This document shows, one piece after another, positions 13,980 to 56,202 of a stretch of 64,000 nt of DNA. Below the pieces are notes generated by a model that made no database searches, was not told where the DNA came from, and saw only the letters and a list, made by a program, of their open reading frames with translations. A program made the translations under genes and the position numbers. The DNA is taken from positions 5,370 through 69,369 of the forward strand of contig DATKAO010000141.1 in the NCBI GenBank assembly GCA_035498015.1, in the 5' to 3' direction. The stretch's first letter is position 1. Every line of letters starts with the position of its first letter. Origin of the DNA: Myxococcota bacterium. GTDB lineage: Bacteria; Myxococcota_A; UBA9160; SZUA-336.

Positions 13980-15662
13980 ATGCTGCGCGGCCCCGGCCGG
14001 AGACACGGATTGCGCAAGCTCGGGCTTCTCCTCGCGCTGGGACTCCTGCCGCTCGCGGGGCTGGGCGCTACGGGCCTGCTCGACTACGACGAGGCGGCCT
14101 ACGGAGACATCGCGCGCGCGATGCTGGCCCGCGGCGACTGGCTCGTGCCGGTGATGTGCGGCGAGCCGTGGTTCGAGAAGCCGCCGCTCTTGTACTGGAC
14201 TTCGGCGCTGGGCATGAAGCTCGTCGGGATCGGCCCCGCGGGCGCGCGGCTGGGGACGCTTTTGGCCGGCGCCGCCGCGCCCATGGCGCTGTTCGCGCTC
14301 TCGCGCCGGCCCCTGGGCGAGCGTGCGGCGTTCGCGGCGGCGGTCGCGCTCGCGAGCGCGCTCGAGTTCGCGGTGCTGGCGCGCGTCGCGCTCACCGACA
14401 TGCTGCTGCTCCTGTGGCTCACCGTGTGTGTCGGCGCGCTGCACCATGCCTTCGAGGACCGCGCCCGAGACACACGCTGGTTCGCGCTGGCGTGTCTGGC
14501 CTGCGCGCTCGCGGTGCTGACCAAGGGACCGATCGGGCTCGCGCTGCCGGCGGCGGCGGGGCTCTTGGAGCTGCTCCTGCGCCGACGGCCGGGCGCGCTG
14601 CTGCGGCCGAGCTGGCTCCTGCTCGGCGTGGCGATCGTGGGCGGTCTCGGCGGCTCGTGGTATCTCGCGCTCGGGGCCGCCCACGGCTTCGGCTTCCTGC
14701 GCTCGCTCTTCGTCGAGCACAACGTGGGGCGCTTCGCCGAGCCCATGCAGGGCCACGGCGGTCCCCTCTGGTACTACGTGCCGGTGCTCCTGGGCGCGCT
14801 CTTCCCCTGGGCGCCGCTCCTGCCGCTGGCGGCGGCGCGCGCCGGCCTGGGCGCCGGCGACGAGCGCGCGAGACACTTGCGCCTGTTCGCGCTCTTTTCC
14901 GCGCTCGTGTTCGCGTTCTTCAGCCTCGCCGGTACGAAGCTGCCGAGCTACGTGGCGCCGGTGCTGCCGGGCTGCGCGCTCCTGGTCGGCGCGCTGGTGG
15001 CCCGGCCGAGTGACTCCGCCCGCGACCGCGCGTTCGCTGTCTCGCTCTGGGCGGTGTTCGCGCTGATGGCGCTGGTCTCGGTGGCGGTGACCCTGCTGCC
15101 GCTCGCGGCGCGCTTTCCGCCCTCGATGCTGTCGGACAAGACGGCGCTCCACCCCGGTCTAGACCAGCGGCTCGATCCGGGCCCGATGTGCGCGGCCGCG
15201 GGCTTCGCGCTGGCCGCCGGGGCGATCGCCGCGGCGCTGTGGTGGCAGGAGCGGCGCGAACGCGCCTGGCTCGCGCTGTGCGGCGGCGCGCTGGCCGGCT
15301 ACACGCTGCTCTCGGCCTTCGTGCTGCCGCGCGTCGACGCGCAGGTGAACGCGCCGCTGCGCCGGCTCGCCGCGCGCGCCGGAGCGCTCACCGGTCCCGA
15401 CGAGCGGCTGCTCGTGCTGGGCCTGCGCCACGCCGCGAGCATCTGCTTCTACTCCGGCCGGCCCACCGAGTACGTGAGTGACTCGGGCGGGAAATACTCC
15501 GAGGCCGTGGTGTTCGGCGAACAGCACCCGCGCATCGGCATCAGCGGCGGGCCGCAGCTCTCGCGCTTCGAGCACAGCGAACGGCTCGAGCTGCTCGAGC
15601 GCGACGGCGGCTACGTGCTGTTCCGGATCCCGGACACGAGCTCGGGCGTGCCGCCGCCCTGA
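13980..15662 (+). CDS. GT39-family glycosyltransferase (ArnT/PMT-like, polytopic membrane protein)
   Basis: GLLDYDEAAYGDIARAMLARGDWLVPVMCGEPWFEKPPLLYW plus many TM helices. Divergent from dus, 33 bp apart. Confidence 0.7.
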   Translation: MLRGPGRRHGLRKLGLLLALGLLPLAGLGATGLLDYDEAAYGDIARAMLARGDWLVPVMCGEPWFEKPPLLYWTSALGMKLVGIGPAGARLGTLLAGAAAPMALFALSRRPLGERAAFAAAVALASALEFAVLARVALTDMLLLLWLTVCVGALHHAFEDRARDTRWFALACLACALAVLTKGPIGLALPAAAGLLELLLRRRPGALLRPSWLLLGVAIVGGLGGSWYLALGAAHGFGFLRSLFVEHNVGRFAEPMQGHGGPLWYYVPVLLGALFPWAPLLPLAAARAGLGAGDERARHLRLFALFSALVFAFFSLAGTKLPSYVAPVLPGCALLVGALVARPSDSARDRAFAVSLWAVFALMALVSVAVTLLPLAARFPPSMLSDKTALHPGLDQRLDPGPMCAAAGFALAAGAIAAALWWQERRERAWLALCGGALAGYTLLSAFVLPRVDAQVNAPLRRLAARAGALTGPDERLLVLGLRHAASICFYSGRPTEYVSDSGGKYSEAVVFGEQHPRIGISGGPQLSRFEHSERLELLERDGGYVLFRIPDTSSGVPPP

Positions 15663-32200: not shown

Positions 32201-32970
32201 CAGCTCGCGTCCTCGAGCGCGGGGCCGGTCCCGGCGGCCACGAGAAAGCGCTGGAGGCGCGGGTCGGGACTCTCCTTGATCTCCTTCACGGTGCCGGAGA
32301 TCGCCGCGCCATCGACCAGGAAGACCACCTCGTCGGCCATGCGCATGGTGGACCCGATGTGGTGATTGGTGAGGATCATCGTGAGTCCCTTCGTGTGGTT
32401 CACCTCGACGAGCAGCGCTTCGATCAGGCGCACCGCGAGCGGGTCGAGACCCGAGAATGGCTCGTCGATCAAGAGGATCTCGGGCTCGGTGACCATGGCG
32501 CGCGCGAGCGCGGCGCGCTTCTTCATGCCGCCGGACAGCTCTCCGGGCAAGAGCGAGTCGACGCGCTTCAGGCCCACCGCCTCGAACTGGGCGTGCACGC
32601 GCTCGGCGATCTCCTTCTCGCGCAGGCGCGTGCGCTCGCGCAGCGGCAGGGCCACGTTGTCGAACACGGTCATCGAGTCGAGCAGCGCGCCGCCCTGGAA
32701 CATCATGCCCAGGCGCTTGCGCACGCGGCGCATCTGGCGCTCGGGCAGACGCGAGATCTCCTCTTCGCCGATCCAGATGTCGCCGTAGTTGGGCCGCTGC
32801 AGGCCCGCCATGAGTCGCAGGAGCGTGCTCTTGCCGACGCCGCTCGCGCCCAGGATCACCGAGATCTTCGCCTGCGAGAAGCGGCACGACAGGCCGTCGA
32901 ACACGCGGCGGTCGCCGAATGCGAGCCGCACCGACACCACGTCGACCCGCGAATTTCCCCGGTCGGGCAT
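32200..32970 (-). CDS. mlaF: MlaF ABC transporter ATP-binding protein
   Basis: Walker A GASGVGKST, LSGGMKKRAALARA signature, Walker B LLIDEP. Confidence 0.8.
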   Translation of the reverse strand: MPDRGNSRVDVVSVRLAFGDRRVFDGLSCRFSQAKISVILGASGVGKSTLLRLMAGLQRPNYGDIWIGEEEISRLPERQMRRVRKRLGMMFQGGALLDSMTVFDNVALPLRERTRLREKEIAERVHAQFEAVGLKRVDSLLPGELSGGMKKRAALARAMVTEPEILLIDEPFSGLDPLAVRLIEALLVEVNHTKGLTMILTNHHIGSTMRMADEVVFLVDGAAISGTVKEIKESPDPRLQRFLVAAGTGPALEDAS

Positions 32971-45379: not shown

Positions 45380-46401
45380 CGGATCCTTTCTGCGAGGAAG
45401 CGCACGAACGCGGGGTGGGCGTTCGCGCAGGGCACGAGCTCGAGCGCCTCGCCGCCCGCCGCCTGCCACTGCGCGCGGCCGCGCACGCCGATCTCCTCGA
45501 GCGTCTCGAGACAGTCGGCCGCGAACGAGGGGCACAGCACGGCCAGGCGCTTCACGCCCGCGCGCGCGAGCTCGGGCAGACGCACGTCGGTGTGGGGCTG
45601 GATCCAGGGCTCCCGGCCGAGCCGCGACTGGAAGGCGAACGAGTGACTCCCCGGCGCGAGCCCGAGCGCGTTCACCAGCGCGCGCGTGGTCGCGACGCAC
45701 TGCGCGCGGTAGCAGCGCGCATTGGCGAAGCCGATCGCGTTGCAGCAGTCGGCGGAGCGCAGACAGTGTGTCCCGCTGCGGTCGCCGGCGCGCATGTGGC
45801 GCTCGGGCAGGCCGTGGTAGGAGAACAGCACGTGGTCGGGGCGGAAGGCCGCGAGCCGCGGGCGCGCGATCTCGGCCAGCGCGCCGATGAAGCCCGCTGC
45901 GTCGTAGAACTCGCCCAGCGCCTCGAGCGGCGGCACGTTGTTCTGCGCGCCCGCGAGCTCGAACAGCTTGGCGAGCCCCGAGCCCAGCGACGACGACGCG
46001 TACTGCGGAAACAGCGGCACGGCGACGATGCGCGCCGCGCCGGCCGCGATCAGCGACCCCAGCGCGTTCCCGAGCGACGGCTGGCCGTAGCGCATGCCGA
46101 GCCGCACCGAGTGACTCGGGCCGAGCTCGGCTTCGAGCGCCGCGGCGAGCGCCTCGCCGTGCACGAGCTGCGGGGAGCCTTCGGGTCCCCAGATCTTGCG
46201 GTAGAGCTCCGCGGAGCGCGGCGCGCGGAACGGCGCGATCACCAGGTTCACCAGCGGCCAGCGCAGGACGGCCGGCATGTCGAGCACGCGCGGGTCCATG
46301 AGAAACTCGCGCAGATAGGCGCGCACGTGGGCTGGCCGCGCCGAGCGCGGCGTGCCCAGGTTGAGCAGCAGCACGCCGGTCTTCTCGCCCGTCCGGGTCA
46401 C
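45376..46401 (-). CDS. hemH: ferrochelatase
   Basis: (M)TRTGEKTGVLLLNLGTPRS...PLFPQYASSS...FSYHGLP are ferrochelatase family motifs. GTG start (GCGTGACCCGG). Confidence 0.8.
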   Translation of the reverse strand: MTRTGEKTGVLLLNLGTPRSARPAHVRAYLREFLMDPRVLDMPAVLRWPLVNLVIAPFRAPRSAELYRKIWGPEGSPQLVHGEALAAALEAELGPSHSVRLGMRYGQPSLGNALGSLIAAGAARIVAVPLFPQYASSSLGSGLAKLFELAGAQNNVPPLEALGEFYDAAGFIGALAEIARPRLAAFRPDHVLFSYHGLPERHMRAGDRSGTHCLRSADCCNAIGFANARCYRAQCVATTRALVNALGLAPGSHSFAFQSRLGREPWIQPHTDVRLPELARAGVKRLAVLCPSFAADCLETLEEIGVRGRAQWQAAGGEALELVPCANAHPAFVRFLAERIR

Positions 46402-46500: not shown

Positions 46501-48183
46501 ATGGCGGAGCTCGATCTCGCGATTCGCGGCGGAACGATCGTCGACGGCACGGGGGCGCCGGCTCGCCGGGGCGACGTGGGGATCCGAGCCGGGCGGATCG
46601 CCGAGCTCGGCACGCTCTCGGGCCGCGCTGCGCGCGAGCTCGACGCCAGCGGCTGCGTGGTCGCGCCCGGCTTCGTCGACATCCACACGCACTACGACGC
46701 CCAGGTCTTCTGGGACCGCATGCTCACGATCTCGCCCTGGCACGGAGTGACTTCCGTGGTGATGGGCAACTGCGGCTTCGGCGTGGCGCCGACCCGGCCC
46801 GCGCACCGCGAGCTGATCATGCGCACGCTCGAGAACGTGGAGGGCATGTCGCTCGAGGCGCTGCGCGCGGGCATCGGGCCCGACTGGCCGTTCGAGACCT
46901 TCCCGCAGTATCTCGACGCGCTCGAGGCGCGCGGCACGGCGATCAACGTGGGGGCGCTCGTGGGTCACACGCCCGTGCGGCTGTACGTGATGGGCGAGGA
47001 GGCGACCGAGCGCGAGGCGACCGAGGACGAGATCGCGCAGATGGAGCGCATCGTGGCCGAAGCCGTGCGCGCCGGCGCGGTGGGCTTCGCGACCAGCAAG
47101 TCGGCCACGCACGTGGGCTACGCGGGCCGGCCGGTGCCGAGCCGCGCGGCCTCGCTCGCGGAGATCGAGAGACTCGCCTCGACGCTCGGCGCGCAGGGCC
47201 GCGGCATCGTGCAGGCCACGATCGGCCGCGGCTTCTTCACCGCCGAGCTCGCGGAGCTGGCGCGCAAGACCGGTCGTCCGGTGTCGTGGACGGCGCTGCT
47301 GGCGGGCGCGCTCGGTCCCGACGGACACCGGAAAGTGTTGGAGGACCACGAGAGGCTCCAGCGCCAGGGCGTGCCGGTCTACCCGCAGGTGGCGTGTCGG
47401 CCGCTCAACTTCGAGTTCCAGTGGAAGGCGCCGTTCCCGTACGAGAGCATGCAGATCTTCCAGCCGGTGTCTCGCGCCGACCACGCGGGCAAGAAGAAGA
47501 TCTACGCCGACCCGGAGTTCCGCGCCGCGTTCCGCGAGCGCGGCAGCAAGGGCGGGATCGCCGGCCGCTGGGAAGACACCGTGGTCTCGAGCTATGCGCC
47601 CGACCCGAGTCTCGAGGAGCGCAACGTGGCGCAGCTGGCGGCCGAGCGCGGCGTGCACCCGGTCGACCTGGTGCTCGACATGGGTCTCGAGACCAACCTC
47701 GAGGCGCGCTTCCGCATCGCCGTCATGAACACCGACGAAGGCGCGGTGCGCGAGCTGCTCGCGCACCCGTCGGTGGTGCTCGGCCTGTCCGACGCGGGCG
47801 CCCACGCGAGTCAGCTGTGCGACGGCTGCTTCTCGACGCACCTGCTCGCGCACTGGGTGCGCGAGCAGGGCGCGCTGTCCATGGAGCAGGGCGTGCGGCT
47901 GCTCAGCTCGCGCTCGGCCGAGGTCTTCGGCATCACCGACCGCGGCCGGCTCGCGCCGGGCCTCGCCGGCGACGTGGCCGTGTTCGACCCCGACACCGTC
48001 GGGTGTAGCCCGCTGCGCCGCGTCTACGATCTGCCCGCGGGTCAGGACCGGCTGGTGGCCGATGCCGAAGGCATGCGCGCGGTGGTCGTGAACGGCGTGC
48101 TGCTGCGCGAGAACGGGCGCGACGCGGTGGATCCGGCCGGAAAGCTGCCGGGGCGCGTGCTGCGCGGCGGCGTCGCCGTCTGA
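46501..48183 (+). CDS. N-acyl-D-amino-acid deacylase (D-aminoacylase)-like amidohydrolase
   Basis: AGGAGG lies 6 nt upstream of ATG. GFVDIHTHYD metal-binding motif and D-aminoacylase-like sequence throughout. Confidence 0.65.
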   Translation: MAELDLAIRGGTIVDGTGAPARRGDVGIRAGRIAELGTLSGRAARELDASGCVVAPGFVDIHTHYDAQVFWDRMLTISPWHGVTSVVMGNCGFGVAPTRPAHRELIMRTLENVEGMSLEALRAGIGPDWPFETFPQYLDALEARGTAINVGALVGHTPVRLYVMGEEATEREATEDEIAQMERIVAEAVRAGAVGFATSKSATHVGYAGRPVPSRAASLAEIERLASTLGAQGRGIVQATIGRGFFTAELAELARKTGRPVSWTALLAGALGPDGHRKVLEDHERLQRQGVPVYPQVACRPLNFEFQWKAPFPYESMQIFQPVSRADHAGKKKIYADPEFRAAFRERGSKGGIAGRWEDTVVSSYAPDPSLEERNVAQLAAERGVHPVDLVLDMGLETNLEARFRIAVMNTDEGAVRELLAHPSVVLGLSDAGAHASQLCDGCFSTHLLAHWVREQGALSMEQGVRLLSSRSAEVFGITDRGRLAPGLAGDVAVFDPDTVGCSPLRRVYDLPAGQDRLVADAEGMRAVVVNGVLLRENGRDAVDPAGKLPGRVLRGGVAV

Positions 48184-49031
48184 CGGCCCTGTCGCTCGTC
48201 GACGGCCGCACGCTCGCGTGGGCGGAGTTCGGCGAGCCCACCGGGCGCCCGCTCCTCTTCTTCCACGGCACGCCGGGCTCACGCCTCGGCGCCAGCGCCC
48301 TCGACGACGTGGCACGGACACGCGGCGTGCGTGTCATTGCGCCGGACCGGCCGGGTTGCGGCAAATCGCAGCCGAAGCCCGGTCGCGCGCTGGTCGACTG
48401 GCCGGACGACGTGCGCGCGCTCGCCGACTCACTCGCCATCGATCGTTTCTCGATCGCGGGCATCTCTGGCGGCGGTCCGTATGCCGCGGTGTGTGCCTGG
48501 GCTCTTCCCGAGCGGGTGAGCGGCGCGGCGATCCTCTCGGGGATCGGACCCACCGATCACCCGGGAGCCACCCGCGACATGCTGTGGACGAATCGACTCT
48601 CGCTCTGGCTCGCGCGGCACGCGCCCCCGCTCGCGCGGGCGCTCCTCGGACTGACGCGCAGCCAGCTGCGCAACCCCGAGCGCGCGCTGACGCGCATGGC
48701 GAGCACGCTTCCCGCGCCCGATCGCGCGATCCTCGCGCAGCCGCTCCACCGCGACCGCCTGATCGCGGAGTTCCGAGAGGCCATCTCGTCCACTACCGAG
48801 GGCGCGATCGCCGACTTGCGGATCTTCGCTTCGCCTTGGGGCTTCGCGCCGGAGGAGATCCGAGTCCCTGTCCACATGTGGCACGGCGAGCTCGATCGCA
48901 ACAGCCCGATCGCGCTCGCGCGCCGGCTGGCGGCGGCGATTCCCGGCTGCCGGACGACGTTCGCTCCGGACGGCGGTCACCTGTTCCCACTGCTGCACCT
49001 GGACGAGGTGCTGAAGTCACTCGGGCTCTAG
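48180..49031 (+). CDS. alpha/beta hydrolase (proline-iminopeptidase-like, HGxPGS), probably initiating at CTG
   Basis: The conserved N-terminus LTALSLVDGRTLAWAEFGEPTGRPLLFFHGTPGSRL lies in frame upstream of the first canonical start (GTG 48309). The only candidate initiator is CTG 48180 in a CTGA overlap with the upstream stop. Nucleophile GISGGG. Confidence 0.5.
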   Translation: MTALSLVDGRTLAWAEFGEPTGRPLLFFHGTPGSRLGASALDDVARTRGVRVIAPDRPGCGKSQPKPGRALVDWPDDVRALADSLAIDRFSIAGISGGGPYAAVCAWALPERVSGAAILSGIGPTDHPGATRDMLWTNRLSLWLARHAPPLARALLGLTRSQLRNPERALTRMASTLPAPDRAILAQPLHRDRLIAEFREAISSTTEGAIADLRIFASPWGFAPEEIRVPVHMWHGELDRNSPIALARRLAAAIPGCRTTFAPDGGHLFPLLHLDEVLKSLGL

Positions 49032-49939
49032 CTCTTCACGAGGTCCCGGCAGAAGGAGCGGATCGCCCCGTTCAGCACGTCGGCGGCCTCCCACTGCAGG
49101 AAGTGACCCGCGTCGCGCACCAGGAACGGGCCGACGTGGTCGGGGAAGACGGCTGCGGCCATGCGGTCGAACTCCGGGTAGATCACGTGGTCCGAAGTGC
49201 CGAACAGGATCAGCGCGTGCGTCGGGTTGGGACCCAGCATCGGCGGCTCGCTGCGCTTCTCGGGCTTGAACACCGACTCGTAGCCGCCGAAGCCGGAGCG
49301 CAGCTTCGCGGCGTCGGCGAAGGGCTCGGTCATGAAGTCGACGGCCTCGCGCGCGAAGTGACCCGGGTGCGCCCAGAAGCGCGAGCCGTAGAAGCTCGCG
49401 ATGTAGCGCCGGCGCTCTTCGGGCGTGCCGAGCTCGCTCGCCAGCGCGTCGGCGTCGGTGCCCTGGCGCAGGAAGTAGTCGGCCGCTTCGGCGGCCGGGC
49501 GCGAGCGCAAGCCCGCCATCTTGTCCTTCAGATAGGGCAGGGGCGAGTTGAAGATCACCAGCCGCTCGACCCGCTCGGGGAAACGCAGCGAGAAGTCCTG
49601 GATCACCGCGCCGCCCAGGTCGCCGCCCACCAGCACCACCCGCCGCACGCCCAGGGCGTCGAGCAGGGCGGCCAGGTCGCGGCTGTGACTCGGCGTGTCG
49701 GCGAAGCCGTCGGGCGCGACGTCGCTCTCGCCGAAGCCCCGCAGGTCGGGCGCGATCACGCGGAAGCCCGCGGCCGCGAGCGGCGCGACGTTGCGCCACC
49801 AGATGCGCTTGGTCTCGGGCCAGCCGTGCACGAGCAGGAGCGGGAAGCCCTGGCCCTCGTCGACGGTCACCTGCCCGAAGCCGCGCGGCGACTCGCGACG
49901 AATCCGGAACCGTGCCGGATCGAGCTCGCCCTCGCTCAA
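49028..49939 (-). CDS. alpha/beta hydrolase (epoxide hydrolase / haloalkane dehalogenase-like)
   Basis: LLLVHGWPE, GGDLGG elbow. TTG start overlaps the bolA stop (TTGA). Its stop shares a CTAG with the convergent hydrolase. Confidence 0.6.
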   Translation of the reverse strand: MSEGELDPARFRIRRESPRGFGQVTVDEGQGFPLLLVHGWPETKRIWWRNVAPLAAAGFRVIAPDLRGFGESDVAPDGFADTPSHSRDLAALLDALGVRRVVLVGGDLGGAVIQDFSLRFPERVERLVIFNSPLPYLKDKMAGLRSRPAAEAADYFLRQGTDADALASELGTPEERRRYIASFYGSRFWAHPGHFAREAVDFMTEPFADAAKLRSGFGGYESVFKPEKRSEPPMLGPNPTHALILFGTSDHVIYPEFDRMAAAVFPDHVGPFLVRDAGHFLQWEAADVLNGAIRSFCRDLVKS

Positions 49940-50193
49940 GGCGCGCGCGTCTCGAGCACGTCGATCGCGTGCACCGGCGCGCCCTCGCCCTTCATCAGGT
50001 GCGCGATCGCGCCCAGCACGAGCCTCTGCTTGGCCAGCGTGTTCTTGCCCGCGAACGCGGCCGAGCTGACGCGGATCTCGAAGTGACCGCCGCTGCCGCG
50101 CACGTCGAGCGAGTCACAAAGCAGCGCCGCCTCGATGGCGGCGCGGATCTGGCCGATCACCTCGGAAGGCGGCGGGTGGATCTGCAGGGCCAA
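49936..50193 (-). CDS. BolA-family protein
   Basis: SGGHFEIRVVS...HRLV...IHAL BolA signature. Start codon uncertain (TTG 50193). Confidence 0.6.
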   Translation of the reverse strand: MALQIHPPPSEVIGQIRAAIEAALLCDSLDVRGSGGHFEIRVSSAAFAGKNTLAKQRLVLGAIAHLMKGEGAPVHAIDVLETRAP

Positions 50194-50201
50194 GGCGGGG
50201 G

Positions 50202-51134
50202 TCAGTAGCGGGGCACCGACGGGTCGATCTCACGCGACCACGCGTCGATCCCGCCGGCCAGGTTGTGGACGTTCGAGAAGCCCTGCGCCGCGAAGTGCTC
50301 GGCCGCCGCCTGGCTGCGTCCGCCGTGGTGGCAGTGGAACACGATGCGCGTGTCGCGCGGCAGCTTCTCGATCTCGGCCGCGACCTGCGGGTCGACCAGC
50401 GTCGCGCCCGCGATGCACGCCTTGCGCTGCTCTTCGGGCGTGCGCACGTCGTAGAGCCGCAGCGGCGCGCCGGAGTCGAGCAGTGCCTTCAGCTCGCGCA
50501 CGGAGAGCTGATTCACTGGGGCGGCCTTGGGGGCGTTGGGGTTGTCGACCGCCAGCGCCTTGCGGCCGCCGCCCGAGTCGACCGCGTCGATCGTGAGCCC
50601 GTCGGCGCGCTGCGCCGAGTCGTGGTCGAAGAGCAGGGTGAGTCCGTTGCTCTCGGCCGCGACCTCGTGACCCGCGCGCGGCCCGAGCGAGAGCGAGTGC
50701 TTGAAGCCGGCGTCGATCGCCACGTGCAGGTCCCCCGGCTGGCGCGCCTGCGCCTCGCGCAGGAGCTGCGCCGCGGCATCGGTCACGGTGACACGGGGCG
50801 GTGTCACCTGCGCGAGCTCGAGCCCGAGCGCCTGGTGCAGCTCGCCGCTCGCGTACATCTCCTTCACGATGTCGCAGCCGCCCTGGAACTCGCCCCCGAT
50901 GTAGAGCTGGGGGATGGTCGGCCAGTTCGAGAACTCCTTGATGCCCTCGCGCACCTCGCGATCCGAAAGCACGTCGAAGCTGCCGTAGCCGGGCAGCAGC
51001 CGGTTCAGGATCGAGACGACCTGTGCGGAGAAGCCGCACTGGGGCGCGTCCGGGTTGCCCTTCATGAACAGGACCACCCGGTCCGAGGCCACGATCGACT
51101 GGATGCGCTCGCGGAGCTGGGGAGACAGCGACAT
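50202..51134 (-). CDS. three-domain fusion protein: Grx4-type monothiol glutaredoxin (CGFS), Cys-less IscA/HesB-like domain, and rhodanese
   Basis: VVLFMKGNPDAPQCGFS (CGFS active site). Middle domain ITVTDAAA...LHVAIDAGF...LTIDAV...NPNA matches an A-type-carrier fold but lacks the three Cys. C-terminal rhodanese with CHHGGRS. AGGAAGGG RBS. Confidence 0.7.
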   Translation of the reverse strand: MSLSPQLRERIQSIVASDRVVLFMKGNPDAPQCGFSAQVVSILNRLLPGYGSFDVLSDREVREGIKEFSNWPTIPQLYIGGEFQGGCDIVKEMYASGELHQALGLELAQVTPPRVTVTDAAAQLLREAQARQPGDLHVAIDAGFKHSLSLGPRAGHEVAAESNGLTLLFDHDSAQRADGLTIDAVDSGGGRKALAVDNPNAPKAAPVNQLSVRELKALLDSGAPLRLYDVRTPEEQRKACIAGATLVDPQVAAEIEKLPRDTRIVFHCHHGGRSQAAAEHFAAQGFSNVHNLAGGIDAWSREIDPSVPRY

Positions 51135-51210: not shown

Positions 51211-51285
51211 GACCCCATCGTCTAGCCTGGCCCAGGACGTCGGCCTTTCACGCCGAGAACGCGGGTTCGAATCCCGCTGGGGTCA
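51211..51285 (+). tRNA. tRNA-Glu (anticodon TTC)
   Basis: Cloverleaf folds by eye: acceptor GACCCCA/TGGGGTC, anticodon stem TCGGC/GCCGA with loop CTTTCAC, T-arm GCGGG-TTCGAAT-CCCGC. Discriminator A, and CCA is encoded (51286-51288). Confidence 0.85.
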
Positions 51286-51288
51286 CCA

Positions 51289-52562: not shown

Positions 52563-53870
52563 TTGGACCTGGGCGCCGCGCTTCCCGTCTGGACCGTCTT
52601 GCCGTTCGCCGGCCTCTTGCTCGCCATCGCGCTCTTGCCGCTGTTCGCCGGGCACTTCTGGGAGCAGAACCGCAACAAGGCGCTGGTGGCCGCGCTGTTC
52701 TCGCTGCCCGTGGTGCTCGAGCTCGCGAGCTTCGGTCACCCGGGCCTGCACCAGCTGGTCGAGAAGGGGCAGGAGTATCTCTCGTTCATCCTGCTCCTGC
52801 TCGCGCTGTTCGTGATCACCGGCGGCATCGTGGTGCGCGGGTCACTCAGCGGCACACCGCTGGTGAATACCGGGATTTTCGGGCTGGGCGCCGTGCTCGC
52901 GAACGTGATCGGCACGACCGGCGCGTCGGTGCTCTTGATCCGCCCCGTCCTGCGCGCCAACGCGCCGCGCGAGCGCAAGGTGCACATCGTGGTGTTCTTC
53001 ATCTTCATCGTGTCCAACTGCGGCGGGCTGCTCACTCCGCTGGGTGACCCGCCGCTGTTTCTCGGCTTCCTGAAGGGCGTGCCGTTCGAGTGGACGTTCT
53101 CGCTCTGGAAGGAGTGGCTGCTCGTGAACGGCGCGCTGCTCGTGCTGTTCAACGTGTGGGACCAGCGCGTGCTCGACCAGGAGGAGCTGGAGCGCCCCGG
53201 CTCCCAGCTCGAAGAGGTCATGCACCACGCGCCGCTGCGCATCGAGGGCCTGCGCAACGCCGCGTTTCTCGCCGGCGTGGTGGCCTTGATCTTCTACGCC
53301 GGCCGCGCCGAGCTGCCCTACGGCGTGCCCCAGGCCGCCATGGCGCTGCTCGCCGTCACCGCCTATCTCGTGACTCCCGAGAGACTCCGGCGCGACAACG
53401 GCTTTACCTGGGGACCGATCGTCGAGGTGGCGGTGCTGTTCGCAGGCATCTTCGTGACCATGGCGCCGGCGCTGCTGCTCCTGAACACGCATGCCGCGAG
53501 CGTGGGCCTGCGCGAGCCCTGGCAGTTCTACTGGGCTTCGGGCCTGCTCTCGAGCTTCCTCGACAACGCGCCCACCTACCTCACGTTCTCGGCCGCGGCC
53601 GCGGGGCTGCACGGGCTCTCGCTCGAGGGCCGCTATCTCGCGGAGCTGCTCGCGCAGGGTGACTCGGGCGCGAGGCTCGTGGCGGCGATCTCCTGCGGCT
53701 CGGTCATGATGGGCGCGAACTCGTACATCGGGAACGGGCCCAACTTCATGGTGAAGGCGATCGCCGAGGAGGCCGGCGTGCGCATGCCGTCGTTCTTCGG
53801 CTACATGGCATACTCGGTGGGGATCCTGATCCCGCTGTTCGTCGTGATCACGTTCATGTTCATGCGCTGA
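52563..53870 (+). CDS. ArsB/NhaD-superfamily ion transporter (sodium:proton antiporter-like)
   Basis: About 12 TM helices. Repeated GxxxG-rich segments (FGLGAVLANVIGTTGASVLLIRP...). GGGGGTGG lies upstream of TTG 52563. Confidence 0.55.
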   Translation: MDLGAALPVWTVLPFAGLLLAIALLPLFAGHFWEQNRNKALVAALFSLPVVLELASFGHPGLHQLVEKGQEYLSFILLLLALFVITGGIVVRGSLSGTPLVNTGIFGLGAVLANVIGTTGASVLLIRPVLRANAPRERKVHIVVFFIFIVSNCGGLLTPLGDPPLFLGFLKGVPFEWTFSLWKEWLLVNGALLVLFNVWDQRVLDQEELERPGSQLEEVMHHAPLRIEGLRNAAFLAGVVALIFYAGRAELPYGVPQAAMALLAVTAYLVTPERLRRDNGFTWGPIVEVAVLFAGIFVTMAPALLLLNTHAASVGLREPWQFYWASGLLSSFLDNAPTYLTFSAAAAGLHGLSLEGRYLAELLAQGDSGARLVAAISCGSVMMGANSYIGNGPNFMVKAIAEEAGVRMPSFFGYMAYSVGILIPLFVVITFMFMR

Positions 53871-53884
53871 CCGGGAGGCCAAGG

Positions 53885-54802
53885 ATGAAGCGCTTCCTTC
53901 CGCCCAACGAGCTCGCTCGGGACTCGCGCTTCAAGCGCGCGGGCGCGCGCAACCAGCTCGTGCCATCGCTACCCGACGACGTGGACCAGGTGGTGGCGGT
54001 GCTCGAGGCGATCGCGCCGAAGATCCGCCAGCGCGTGGAGGGCACGGCGCTCGAGCAGATGTACGACGAGCTCGGCCCGGGCTTCGCCTTCCTGATGAAC
54101 GCCGTGCAGCCCAAGCCCGGCTCGCCCGACGCCGAGCGCCAGCTGCGGCTGCGCCTGCACGGCATCTACGTGGGCGAGCTGCAGGCGCTCGAGGCCGCGG
54201 GCCGCACGCTCTGGGACTTCCCCGACGCGCCCTGGGAGTTCAAGCTGAACATGGCGCGCCAGTGCTGGGACGAGACGCGCCACGTGCAGGTGTACGAGAA
54301 GCTGCTCGAGCGCGCGGGCGGCGCGGTCGGCGAGTATCCCGAGAACACTTTCCTGTTCGAGGCGTCGTGTCATGACGACCCGCTCCTGCGAGTCACCGGC
54401 GTGAACCGCTGTCTCGAGGGTCTGGCCTGCGACGTGTTCCGCCAGCTGATCGACTACGGGCACAAGACGGGCGACGAGGTGCTCGCGCAGGCCGTCGACT
54501 TCGTCCTGGCCGACGAGCTCACCCACGTGCGCTTCGGCAGTGACTGGCTGCGCGAGTGGACGAAGGGCGATCCCGAGCGCGCGCGGCGCGCGCACGAGTT
54601 CCAGCGCGAGGTCGACCGGCGCTTCACGTTCGGCGGCGCGCGCACGATCGCGCGCGAGGAGCGGCTCGAGGCCGGCTTCAGCGAGGCCGAGCTCGACGAG
54701 CTGTCGGCCACGCAGGGCGGCGGGCCGAGCCGCGAAACGCTGGTGCGGGCGGCCGAGATCGCGCGCGAGCGTCACCTGGCCAGGCGCTCGCCACAGCCCT
54801 GA
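53885..54802 (+). CDS. DUF455-like ferritin-like-superfamily protein
   Basis: GGGAGG lies 7 nt upstream of ATG. Conserved E/H-containing helices (WDETRHVQ...DELTHVRFG). Confidence 0.55.
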   Translation: MKRFLPPNELARDSRFKRAGARNQLVPSLPDDVDQVVAVLEAIAPKIRQRVEGTALEQMYDELGPGFAFLMNAVQPKPGSPDAERQLRLRLHGIYVGELQALEAAGRTLWDFPDAPWEFKLNMARQCWDETRHVQVYEKLLERAGGAVGEYPENTFLFEASCHDDPLLRVTGVNRCLEGLACDVFRQLIDYGHKTGDEVLAQAVDFVLADELTHVRFGSDWLREWTKGDPERARRAHEFQREVDRRFTFGGARTIAREERLEAGFSEAELDELSATQGGGPSRETLVRAAEIARERHLARRSPQP

Positions 54803-56202
54803 GCCGAGCCGCCCGCGTCTGGCTGACCGCGCTCCTCGCGGCGACGGCAGCCTGCGCCGTCCCTGCGCCCGTGCTCGAGACGGCCCAGGACGACGCCCAG
54901 GCCGGCGCCGAGGCGAGCCGGCAGGTCGAAGCCATGATCGGGTTCGTGCAGGACCCGAGGCTGCGCCAGTACCTGCAGTCACTCGGCGAGAAGCTGGTGC
55001 GCTTCGCGCCCGCGCAGCCGTTCGAGTACCGGTTCCAGGTCGTCGACCAGTGGAGCCCGAACGCCTTCGCGCTCCCCGGGGGACAGATCTTCGTGTCGCG
55101 CGGCCTGCTCGCGCTGACCAACTCGGAGGACGAGCTCGCGTGCGTGCTGGGGCACGAGATCACCCACGCGGCCGAGCGCCACGCCGCGAGTCAGCAGGCG
55201 TTCAGCCAGCAGCTGAGTCCCTTCTCGCTGGCGCTGCCGCGCCAGGCGATCGTGGCGAAGTACGCGCGCGATCAGGAGCGCGCGGCCGACACGGGCGGGC
55301 AGCGCATCTGCTCCGCGGCAGGATACGATCCGCGCGCGCTGTCCAGCTTCCTCGAGTCACTCGGCGGGATCGACCGGCTGCAGATGGGCGTCTCACGCAT
55401 TCCGACCTTTCTCGACAGTCACCCGGGCACCCCCGAGCGCATCGCCACCACGGCGGCCTTCGCTTCGACCCTGCCCCCGCCCGGGCCGCGCGATCCGGTG
55501 CGGGCGCGCGAGGCCTATCTGGCCCGCCTGGAAGGGCTCTTGCTCGGGGCCGACCCCAGCGAAGGCGTGATCCTGGGCTCGCGCTTCGTGCATCCCGACC
55601 TGGGCTTCTCGGTCACCTTCCCGGAGGGCTGGCGGGTGGTGAACACGGCCAGCGCGGTGGTCGCGCGCTCGCCGCGCCGCGACGCCCGCTTCGCGCTCGA
55701 GCCGGCCGGCCCGGGCAGCGACCCGCGGGCCGTGGCCGAGCCCTACCTCGCCCAGCGCGTGCAGGAGTGGCGCGCGGTGCTCGATTTCCAGGGCGCGGAG
55801 GCGACGCCCTGCTGCGCGGCGTACGTGGTGCGCGGGTCGGTCGAGTCGACGCAGGGAGTGATTGCGGGCCAGCTGGCGTGGGTCGTGCTCGCCGGCCGCG
55901 TGTATCGCCTGTCCGCCGCTTTCGTGCCCACGGCTTCCGAGAAGTACGCCGAGCGCGCGCGTCAGATGGTGCAGAGCTTCCGGCCACTCACCGACGAGGA
56001 GCGCGCCGGGATCCGAGTCAACCGCCTGCACCTGGCCCGAGCCCGCGCCGGCGAGAGCTTGGCTTCGTTCTCGGCGCGCACGGGCAACGTCTACGACGCG
56101 CAGCCGACGGCGCTCGCCAACGGGCTCGCGCCCGGCACGAGGCTGTCGGCGGGTCAGCTGCTGAAGATCGGCGTGCAGAAGACCTACGAGCCGCAGAAGT
56201 GA
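54799..56202 (+). CDS. M48-family metallopeptidase with signal peptide and C-terminal LysM-like segment, probably initiating at CTG
   Basis: HEITHAAERH zinc motif. An in-frame signal peptide (L/M)SRAARVWLTALLAATAACAVPAPV precedes the first canonical start. CTG 54799 overlaps the DUF455 stop (CTGA). The track's ATG 54556 extension is Arg-rich and overlaps DUF455 by 247 nt. Confidence 0.55.
   Translation: MSRAARVWLTALLAATAACAVPAPVLETAQDDAQAGAEASRQVEAMIGFVQDPRLRQYLQSLGEKLVRFAPAQPFEYRFQVVDQWSPNAFALPGGQIFVSRGLLALTNSEDELACVLGHEITHAAERHAASQQAFSQQLSPFSLALPRQAIVAKYARDQERAADTGGQRICSAAGYDPRALSSFLESLGGIDRLQMGVSRIPTFLDSHPGTPERIATTAAFASTLPPPGPRDPVRAREAYLARLEGLLLGADPSEGVILGSRFVHPDLGFSVTFPEGWRVVNTASAVVARSPRRDARFALEPAGPGSDPRAVAEPYLAQRVQEWRAVLDFQGAEATPCCAAYVVRGSVESTQGVIAGQLAWVVLAGRVYRLSAAFVPTASEKYAERARQMVQSFRPLTDEERAGIRVNRLHLARARAGESLASFSARTGNVYDAQPTALANGLAPGTRLSAGQLLKIGVQKTYEPQK

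Follow-up and report, generated by a model that had tools for sequence, protein, structure and literature searches.

Four-nucleotide overlaps of the NUGA type (ATGA, GTGA, and TTGA) couple the translation of neighboring genes by termination-reinitiation (PMC6728339; PMC12548453; bioRxiv 10.1101/2022.06.01.494293). In such overlaps as described, the first base is A or G and, in rare cases, U, and the annotated NUGA overlaps of M. tuberculosis are stated to have "no CUG starts" (bioRxiv 10.1101/2022.06.01.494293), which counts against the use of CUG at such a junction. The same holds for the reported performance of CTG as an initiator: its expression in E. coli is about ten times below that of TTG (Hecht et al., as cited in PMC11983097), it is not enriched at the Ribo-RET initiation sites of M. 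tuberculosis (PMC9094748), and among the start codons recovered by selection in M. smegmatis its share is 0.03% (PMC4633059). A CTG start has been proven, by N-terminal sequencing and CTG-to-CTC mutation, for the RepFIB rep gene (plasmids P307, F, and pO157), in which it is free-standing, is served by a ribosome-binding site (GGAGG), and is presumed to keep expression low (PMC11983097). Another near-cognate start, the AUU of infC (IF3), is conserved and lies just behind the stop codon of the cistron before it, and restart contributes to its use (PMC3592434). No description of CTGA or CUGA coupling or reinitiation was found in the full-text literature searched, which was a limited collection.

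We analyzed a 64-kb stretch of DNA (the window) from a soil Myxococcota genome, an uncultured MAG, in which an alpha/beta-hydrolase gene, intact and conserved to judge from its sequence and its relatives, most likely begins at a rare CTG. Its junction with the upstream gene shares with NUGA coupling the co-directional genes, the 4-nt overlap with UGA inside the start codon plus one base, and a downstream gene without a Shine-Dalgarno motif, whereas N is C, which suggests that the CUGA junction is a variant of the known translational coupling. With RepFIB rep, it shares a conserved CTG that would start an essential N-terminus and a start routinely mis-annotated to a downstream GTG; it differs in lacking a ribosome-binding site, in the overlap of its CTG with a stop codon, and in being supported by sequence comparison. 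Compared with infC, the near-cognate start near a preceding stop is the common feature, whereas infC has AUU with a Shine-Dalgarno motif, autoregulation through IF3, and a start that does not overlap the stop.

The upstream gene (46501..48183, plus strand) encodes an amidohydrolase of the Amidohydro_3 family (560 aa; Pfam PF07969, E=4e-39), and its orthologue on contig L001 likewise has 560 aa. The preliminary description of the window had called it a D-aminoacylase gene, and this D-aminoacylase-like identity was retained, with the start being placed at the ATG at 46501, preceded by GAGGAGG with a 6-nt spacer, and not at the mechanical ORF start at 45415. Its stop TGA occupies 48181-48183, and the sequence at 48180-48183 reads CTGA, as had been described, so that the proposed CTG start of the hydrolase (48180..48182, plus strand) overlaps this stop. 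The hydrolase frame is open from 48009, behind an in-frame stop at 48006-48008, to the TAG at 49029-49031, and a frame scan found no ATG, GTG, or TTG in it between the 48006-48008 stop and the GTG at 48309..48311 (plus strand), the first canonical in-frame codon, from which the product would be 240 aa. The earlier claim that no such codon occurs between 48180 and 48309 was thereby confirmed, and the N-terminal peptide quoted with it, LTALSLVDGRTLAWAEFGEPTGRPLLFFHGTPGSRLGASALDDVAR, matched the hydrolase frame exactly. The claim that the frame is open back to the upstream TGA was also correct, but the frame extends 57 codons further 5' of the CTG, and these codons represent Arg-rich off-frame sequence within the amidohydrolase gene. 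Read from the CTG, the full coding sequence comprises 283 codons plus TAG (48180..49031, plus strand) and is supported by Pfam Abhydrolase_1, an AF2 model, and Foldseek.

The chance of one CTGA in the right frame is about 1 in 6, which is not improbable alone, and the above-chance signal arises because the lack of a canonical start, a unique coding signature, and a geometry kept in six lineages combine. Upstream of GTG 48309, the GC content at codon positions 1, 2, and 3 was 0.77, 0.59, and 0.95, a coding signature that no other ORF in the window has ahead of its first canonical start; when the window was searched by GC3 for more genes with such a 5' extension of the coding sequence, the hydrolase alone stood out. 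The window contains about 17 four-base junctions, two of which are CUGA-coupled candidates; at least 14 are canonical NTGA couplings, in agreement with the likeness in geometry that had been pointed out.

The junction was compared in six lineages (the window, L001, L003, L004, L044, and L046; 65-88% amino-acid identity), the sequences of which come from independent JGI, ENA, and Logan assemblies. CTGA occupies the same aligned column in 6/6 lineages, and the distance from the CTG to the stop is exactly 283 codons in all of them, whereas the flanks vary, the preceding codon being GTC, ATC, GTC, CTC, TCC, and GCC and the codon after the CTG being ACG, ACG, ACG, ACC, AGC, and AAG, respectively. 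No in-frame ATG, GTG, or TTG was found before the HG motif (see below) in the window, L003, L004, and L044, and a canonical start further upstream, inside the amidohydrolase gene, was considered and rejected, being absent from the open frame of any lineage. Between codons -20 and +30, the six lineages have no near-cognate codon in common apart from the CTG at position 0, and the next one in L004 and L044 is at codon +24. Furthermore, the amidohydrolase and hydrolase genes adjoin in every lineage inspected.

The dN/dS of codons 2-43 was 0.09-0.43, compared with 0.19-0.36 for the rest of the hydrolase, indicating by this measure that purifying selection acts on codons 2-43 as it does on the remainder of the protein; the raw synonymous divergence (pS) between lineages was 0.23-0.70 for the N-terminal segment and 0.24-0.50 for the remaining codons. 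At hydrolase-frame positions 1, 2, and 3, the variable columns numbered 27/39, 14/39, and 10/39 on the 5' side of the CTG and 23/78, 20/78, and 56/78 on its 3' side, and the peak of position-3 variation begins in the first bin past the CTGA. On these alignments, the frame of selection was demonstrated to switch at the conserved CTGA, and the N-terminus, which has no canonical start, to be under selection at the protein level.

These comparisons also bear on the ways in which the preliminary description might have been wrong, and on each of these points it was upheld. In the alignment of homologues, none starts at the equivalent of 48309, and the full-length ones (288 aa) begin five codons upstream of the CTG position. 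The independent assemblies of the six lineages keep the CTGA and reveal no hidden canonical start, and an identical JGI contig, L020, has the same junction; therefore, an indel or sequencing error is excluded. A pseudogene or truncated product was ruled out by the dN/dS values, the position-3 pattern, the structure model, and the invariance of S96, D239, H267, and H29-G30. In scans of genome and metagenome contigs, the matches listed besides the identical L020 (metagenome) reached at most 58% identity over the best local segment, and the full-length relatives among them at most 50%.

The encoded protein is a member of the alpha/beta hydrolase fold by its profile matches and predicted structure, and its catalytic activity is predicted. 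PF00561 (Abhydrolase_1) gave 61.5 bits (cut-off 25.8) and PF12697 gave 56.4 bits (cut-off 26.3), and in the Abhydrolase_1 match residues 24-272 align to positions 2-243 of the 245-position profile. The nucleophile Ser96 (TCT; 48465..48467, plus strand) lies in G-I-S-G-G, and Asp239 (48894-48896) and His267 (48978-48980, both plus strand), with codons read directly, complete the triad; G94, S96, G98, D239, and H267 are invariant across 56 homologues, and so is the HG oxyanion-hole motif His29-Gly30 (CAC GGC; 48264..48269, plus strand). The NCBIfam matches (3-oxoadipate enol-lactonase and proline iminopeptidase) are far below the curated cut-offs, and no equivalog-level NCBIfam match was found. 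The AF2 model of the 283-residue protein has a pLDDT of 94.7 and a pTM of 0.93, and Foldseek returned 1817 matches in the PDB (E<=0.001). The best of them, 9wlv (TMq 0.94), an alpha/beta-fold hydrolase of Microlunatus sagamiharensis, is a solved 290-residue chain that aligns over the whole model with 38% identity and an rmsd of 1.7 over 286 columns; the likeness is in the protein, which is full length with the N-terminal strands, and not in the start.

The 42 codons without a canonical start (48183..48308, plus strand) encode, in the AF2 model, strands 2-5, 11-18, and 23-28, the HG loop following strand 23-28, and the start of helix 35-47. They hold 6/22 invariant residues of the family (R10, G18, G22, H29, G30, and P32). 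As had been argued, a start at 48309 would delete the HG motif; it would also remove the three strands and most of helix 35-47. The form read from the CTG matches the Abhydrolase_1 profile from position 2, whereas the 240-aa form matches it only from position 27.

A second case, missed in the preliminary description, was found in the same window. The upstream gene (53885..54802, plus strand) encodes a DUF455 protein (Pfam PF04305, E=2.8e-28), with an ATG preceded by GGGAGG and a stop TGA at 54800-54802. The proposed CTG start (54799..54801, plus strand), again in a CTGA overlap, opens a 467-codon Peptidase_M48 gene (BepA/LoiP-like; 54799..56202, plus strand; Pfam PF01435, E=4.8e-30), which NCBIfam BepA and LoiP also match, below their curated cut-offs. 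The CTGA is conserved in 3/3 lineages (the window, L053 at 76% identity, and L054 at 70% identity), in which no canonical in-frame start preserving the N-terminus was found. Residues 1-19, (L)SRAARVWLTALLAATAAC, have a charged n-region, a hydrophobic h-region, and a lipobox Cys (codon 54853-54855), and hence constitute a predicted lipoprotein-type signal peptide. This segment can be aligned position by position with canonical homologues such as MLRRRRSFGLLAVLLAAC, which carry an N-terminal M..R..hydrophobic..AAC. An in-frame NTG located 81 codons 5' in all three lineages was rejected as the start: it has no Shine-Dalgarno motif, it arises incidentally from a Glu-Trp pair (GAR TGG) conserved in DUF455, and selection across these 81 codons is in the DUF455 frame only. 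The M48 gene is, on this comparison, independent support, because a signal peptide, which has to stand at the N-terminus, begins at its CTG.

Taken together, these features probably reflect restart, at both junctions, of ribosomes that end at UGA on the overlapping CUG, that is, NUGA coupling with N = C. Ribosomes would translate the well-initiated amidohydrolase gene, terminate at the UGA at 48181-48183, and stay on the mRNA, and a fraction of them would shift by one nucleotide onto the CUG and restart. The initiator tRNA would presumably read the CUG, giving a 283-residue enzyme with Met replacing Leu1, and the M48 lipoprotein at 54799 would be made by the same process. Both genes are co-directional with their upstream partners, whose stops lie inside the NTGA (48180-48183 and 54799-54802), and the proposed start codon at the junctions is CTG, not ATG, GTG, or TTG, in every lineage (six for the hydrolase and three for M48). 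In the 22 nt before each CTG, no Shine-Dalgarno-like motif of >=4 nt was found, and roughly half of the window's canonical NTGA junctions likewise have none, which fits restart rather than fresh initiation. That the CUG is read as the start, by fMet-tRNA and in dependence on upstream translation, is what we infer from this arrangement.

The main alternative, which we consider unlikely, is that ribosomes restart at the junction without recognizing the CUG, by using another near-cognate codon (ACG at 48183-48185) or by resumption with an elongator tRNA, in which case the CTG would be a mere by-product. Only the C of the CTGA is free, because the upstream stop suffices to account for the T, G, and A. 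A synonymous third position is invariant across the same six lineages at 21/101 control sites (21%), and therefore the retention of the C by itself is not significant. This alternative is further favored by the ACG that directly follows the CTG in three lineages (the window, L001, and L003) and by the poor performance of CTG as an initiator elsewhere. However, the ACG becomes ACC, AGC, and AAG in L004, L044, and L046, respectively, and CTG(0) is the sole common near-cognate, L004 and L044 having no other before codon +24. To our knowledge, moreover, start-codon-independent restart has been described only under impaired ribosome recycling. Replacing the C by G, A, or T would yield a canonical start without altering the amidohydrolase, and none of these replacements was seen, which counts against a weak CTG start.

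Restart on the CUG is also to be weighed against use of the CTG as a start to which ribosomes bind afresh, by uncoupled, Shine-Dalgarno-independent initiation. RepFIB indicates that a CTG can work de novo (PMC11983097), and many genes in the window have no clear Shine-Dalgarno motif; RepFIB needs its GGAGG to offset the CTG, however, while neither CTG here has such a site, and the position of both cases exactly on a stop codon would be a coincidence, so that we regard fresh binding as improbable. A programmed -1 frameshift in the 3'-terminal part of the amidohydrolase gene, producing an amidohydrolase-hydrolase fusion for which no start codon is needed, seems slightly less probable still. It would agree with the two enzymes always adjoining and with the hydrolase frame being the -1 frame of the amidohydrolase, open for at least 57 codons upstream in all lineages, but at 71% G+C chance alone would be expected to leave the -1 frame open. 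There is no conserved X XXY YYZ heptamer in the last 117 nt: none occurs in the window, L001, L003, and L044, and isolated heptamers occur in L004 and L046 only, at different, non-homologous places. No conserved RNA structure was found (RNAalifold covariation term +2.83, unfavorable, with many pairs broken), the hydrolase frame is not under selection 5' of the CTG, and no fused homologue is present among the 120 matches listed, all of at most 364 aa. The M48 parallel could not function as a fusion, because a signal peptide has to be at the N-terminus. A decaying gene, a product truncated at GTG 48309 or 48327, or an assembly error is very improbable, since the public gene calls at 48327 (P0001) or equivalent positions that agree with it are opposed by the purifying selection on codons 2-43, the position-3 pattern right after the CTGA, the invariant catalytic and HG residues, the loss of three core strands on truncation, and the same geometry in six independent assemblies.

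As for the history of the preferred CUG junction, the genes of L048, a relative, stand in the same order, with a TAG stop, an AGATC spacer, and a GTG start. A 24-nt deletion from an L048-like ancestor would remove the canonical start and five codons, and the present arrangement is consistent with such an event. In a neighbor-joining tree (300 bootstraps), however, L044 and L046 group with the canonical L048 and P0006 (84%), and the group of the window joins P0015 and P0021 (86%). The CTGA lineages are thus not monophyletic in this tree, which counts against the best explanation, and the CTGA state may have had one origin or two. Judging from the synonymous divergence reached in the CTGA state, a gene may persist long after the deletion of its start codon.

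Public annotations cut off the N-terminus of both proteins, and the hydrolase thereby loses its oxyanion loop. P0001, in which the hydrolase is 100% identical, is called from GTG 48327 with a product of 234 aa, the NCBI call of M48 begins at GTG 54871 with loss of the signal peptide, and several further homologues of both families have similarly truncated calls. A rule allowing CTG on an upstream TGA when homology demands it would recover such proteins. It is possible, although we propose this tentatively, that in this Myxococcota lineage, and perhaps widely in high-G+C bacteria, ribosomes terminating at UGA restart on CUG, so that NUGA would couple with any N. If so, there would be a hidden class of CUGA-coupled genes that gene callers systematically truncate or flag as pseudogenes, and start-codon proofreading would be relaxed in reinitiation compared with fresh initiation. 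The control of start-codon specificity in post-termination scanning is an open question according to a 2025 review (PMC12548453), and a conserved CUGA junction without a Shine-Dalgarno motif offers a clean substrate for asking whether ribosomes are less selective about the codon when they reinitiate than when they initiate afresh.

Four further CTGA sites in the window were considered and set aside. Those at 53867 and 50205 (minus strand) are ordinary, with GGGAGG and an ATG six codons later and with a TTG four codons later, respectively; the junction at 32203 (minus strand) is actually TGATG, and the frame at 15659 is an antisense shadow. On the other side of the hydrolase gene, a second alpha/beta-hydrolase gene (49028..49939, minus strand) is convergent with it, the stops of the two overlapping in the palindrome CTAG (49028-49031), and the start of this minus-strand gene is a conserved TTGA overlap.

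Direct reading of the frames bore out the preliminary description, which had placed a CTGA overlap at the start of the alpha/beta-hydrolase gene (48180..49031, +) and had found no ATG, GTG or TTG before GTG 48309. No stop interrupts the hydrolase frame from 48009 until the TAG at 49029-49031, and the CTGA at 48180-48183 reads ...GCC GTC TGA in the frame of the upstream gene and ...CGT CTG ACG GCC CTG TCG... in that of the hydrolase, confirming a hydrolase frame that lacks a canonical start and has CTG in the overlap. The N-terminal peptide quoted earlier also matched the window translation exactly. The upstream gene matched Amidohydro_3 in Pfam (E=4e-39), and its true start is ATG 46501, with GAGGAGG ahead of it. 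At the other end, the hydrolase gene and a convergent second alpha/beta-hydrolase gene finish at a CTAG palindrome (49028-49031) with TAG on each strand, the two stop codons sharing two bases in a 4-nt overlap of both coding sequences; the same overlap of gene calls was observed in the relatives' contigs L001 (3813-3816), L003 (966-969) and L044 (1474-1477). The sole tRNA in the window is a tRNA-Glu (anticodon TTC) at 51211-51288 (+).

The 43 codons preceding 48309 belong to the hydrolase protein. Residues 24-272 of the form starting at CTG aligned with positions 2-243 of the Abhydrolase_1 profile (Pfam), whereas the alignment of the 240-aa form began only at profile position 27. Among 56 aligned homologues, R10, G18, G22, H29, G30 and P32 were invariant, and the catalytic Ser96, Asp239 and His267 were likewise so. 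An AlphaFold2 model (pLDDT 94.7) contained, in the N-terminal stretch, strands 2-5, 11-18 and 23-28, the HG loop and helix 35-47, and was superposed on a solved alpha/beta-hydrolase of 290 residues (PDB 9wlv) over 286 columns with a TMq of 0.94. Homologues did not start at the equivalent of 48309, a possibility raised in the preliminary description; full-length ones, of 288 aa, begin five codons 5' of the CTG position (e.g. VVDAAPRKLSLTDGRTLAW).

To the closest proteins, among the matches listed, truncated calls had been given: P0001 (100% identity, 234 aa), P0003 (88%), P0002 (87%), P0005 (83%), P0022 (65%) and P0014 (65%). In relatives' contigs drawn from independent JGI, ENA and Logan assemblies, the amidohydrolase gene lay upstream of the hydrolase in every contig retrieved, and CTGA was at the same aligned column in all six lineages (the window, L001, L003, L004, L044 and L046), forming an invariant island between variable flanks. 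The last amidohydrolase codon differed (GTC, ATC, GTC, CTC, TCC and GCC), as did the codon following CTG (ACG, ACG, ACG, ACC, AGC and AAG), and the length from CTG to the stop was exactly 283 codons in each lineage. Lineage-specific GTG codons were found at codon 12 in L001 and codon 23 in L046.

From codon -20 to +30, CTG was the only near-cognate codon common to the six lineages, and the next one in L004 and L044 was at +24, within strand 3. The T, G and A of CTGA are explained by the upstream stop; since the C occupies a wobble position and invariance across the lineages also held for 21 of 101 comparable synonymous sites, the case for CTG rests on elimination and recurrence, not on conservation statistics. 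Taken together, the comparative evidence supports the proposed reading of CTG as the probable start. The likeliest mechanism, which we favor with moderate confidence, would be termination-reinitiation, in which ribosomes terminating at UGA would restart on the overlapping CUG. No Shine-Dalgarno-like motif precedes the hydrolase CTG; of the window's 14 canonical NTGA junctions, roughly half likewise have none. A -1 frameshift, which would yield an amidohydrolase-hydrolase fusion, has no positive support, because neither a conserved slippery heptamer nor a conserved RNA structure was found across the lineages.

A second case was found at 54799, where a DUF455 gene (PF04305; 53885..54802, +) ends in a stop that overlaps the proposed start CTG of an M48 protease gene (54799..56202, +). 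The frame from this CTG reads (L)SRAARVWLTALLAATAAC|AVPAP, followed by a Peptidase_M48 domain (Pfam). All full-length M48 homologues carry lipoprotein signal peptides, whose lipobox Cys aligns with Cys19 of the window protein, whereas the NCBI call ('M48 family metalloprotease [Myxococcota bacterium]') starts at GTG 54871 without the signal peptide. The CTGA with DUF455 was kept in the relatives L053 (76% identity) and L054 (70%), neither of which has a canonical start preserving the signal peptide. An in-frame NTG exactly 81 codons upstream (GTG at window 54556, ATG at L053 2165 and GTG at L054 2159) was rejected as the start, as it is a by-product of a conserved DUF455 Glu-Trp (GAR TGG), with no Shine-Dalgarno and no M48-frame selection. 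Because a signal peptide must be N-terminal, this case favors separate initiation at the junction over a frameshift fusion. Coupling at a CUGA junction would be a previously undescribed form of the known NUGA coupling; it has two supported cases in the window, and these lead to truncated public annotations. Many public gene calls in the M48 lipoprotein family begin within or after the signal peptide, leaving none (P0122, P0127, P0147 and P0150) or a stub (P0124, P0128, P0129, P0136, P0142, P0144 and P0145), and the family may hold more mis-called or non-canonical starts.

Selection on the hydrolase frame was evident from the junction onward. The dN/dS (Nei-Gojobori) was 0.09-0.43 for codons 2-43 in all pairs and 0.19-0.36 for the remainder of the gene. 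Upstream of CTG, variable columns at hydrolase-frame positions 1, 2 and 3 numbered 27/39, 14/39 and 10/39, position 1 being the amidohydrolase wobble position; downstream, they numbered 23/78, 20/78 and 56/78, with position 3 dominating already within the first 30-nt bin past CTGA. This switch places the onset of protein-level constraint on the hydrolase frame at the junction and no earlier, which rules out a selected N-terminal extension upstream of CTG and, together with the dN/dS, a pseudogene, as had been considered in the preliminary description. Sequencing error, including an indel hiding a canonical start, is excluded, since independent assemblies of six lineages share the CTGA geometry and, in four of the six, no canonical codon precedes the HG motif in frame.

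CTG is a poor start in E. coli, as PMC11983097 relates in citing Hecht et al., in M. tuberculosis Ribo-RET (PMC9094748) and in M. smegmatis selection experiments (PMC4633059); none of these measurements addressed restart after termination, for which a 2025 review regards start-codon specificity as unresolved (PMC12548453). No CUG is among the annotated NUGA overlaps of M. tuberculosis (bioRxiv 10.1101/2022.06.01.494293), and full-text literature searches of limited coverage found no description of CUGA coupling. The plasmid gene RepFIB, whose CTG start is proven, provides a precedent for CTG initiation (PMC11983097).

A GC3-guided survey of 4-nt junctions in the window yielded 3 ATGA, about 9-10 GTGA and 2 TTGA junctions, all canonical, and six CTGA: the supported 48180 and 54799, the ordinary 53867, 50205(-) and 32203(-), and the spurious 15659. 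CTGA 53867 (53867-53887) has GGGAGG and ATG 53885 downstream, and 50205(-) (50193-50205) has TTG four codons downstream in a BolA-like gene. The TTGA at the BolA/second-hydrolase junction was present in 4/4 lineages (window 49936-49939 (-), L001 4721-4724, L003 1874-1877 and L044 2385-2388), kept via a rare CCT codon at a genome GC3 of about 90% or higher, which suggests that the N of NTGA is generally stable, or tuned. A CTGA junction reading LTKDDDGDGNIDQYGLGVEPSIIRL was also observed near 1080 on the minus strand of L007 and L030, a Gaiellaceae MAG and a matching metagenome contig; the next canonical start is 17 codons downstream, and the gene may be frameshifted or mis-called.

As to the origin of the arrangement, L048, a relative with 68% identity, a canonical GTG start and the same gene order, has the junction GCC GCC TAG AGATC GTG GTC GAC GCC GCG CCG AGG AAG CTG TCC. 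If the 24 nt that separate the T of TAG from the G of CCG are taken out, GCC GCC TGA GG... remains, the exact CTGA geometry, and we infer that a 24-nt deletion from an L048-like ancestor could be its source. The CTGA lineages were not monophyletic in an NJ tree of the hydrolase family, in which L044 and L046 grouped with the canonical-start L048 and P0006 (84%) and the window's group lay beside P0015 and its relative P0021 (86%). Therefore, one origin and two both stand: the same deletion geometry may have arisen on two occasions, recombination may have occurred, or the tree may be wrong. In L047 (2950-3003; P0015, 62% identity, NCBI GCA_973790005.1), a related hydrolase lies behind an alcohol dehydrogenase gene and has no canonical start at the family start position, where ATC is found (IAESAPRTLSLAGGR aligned with VVDAAPRKLSLTDGR). 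This ATC, 8 nt ahead of the end of the dehydrogenase stop and with the first ATG 15 codons downstream, may be another non-canonical restart.
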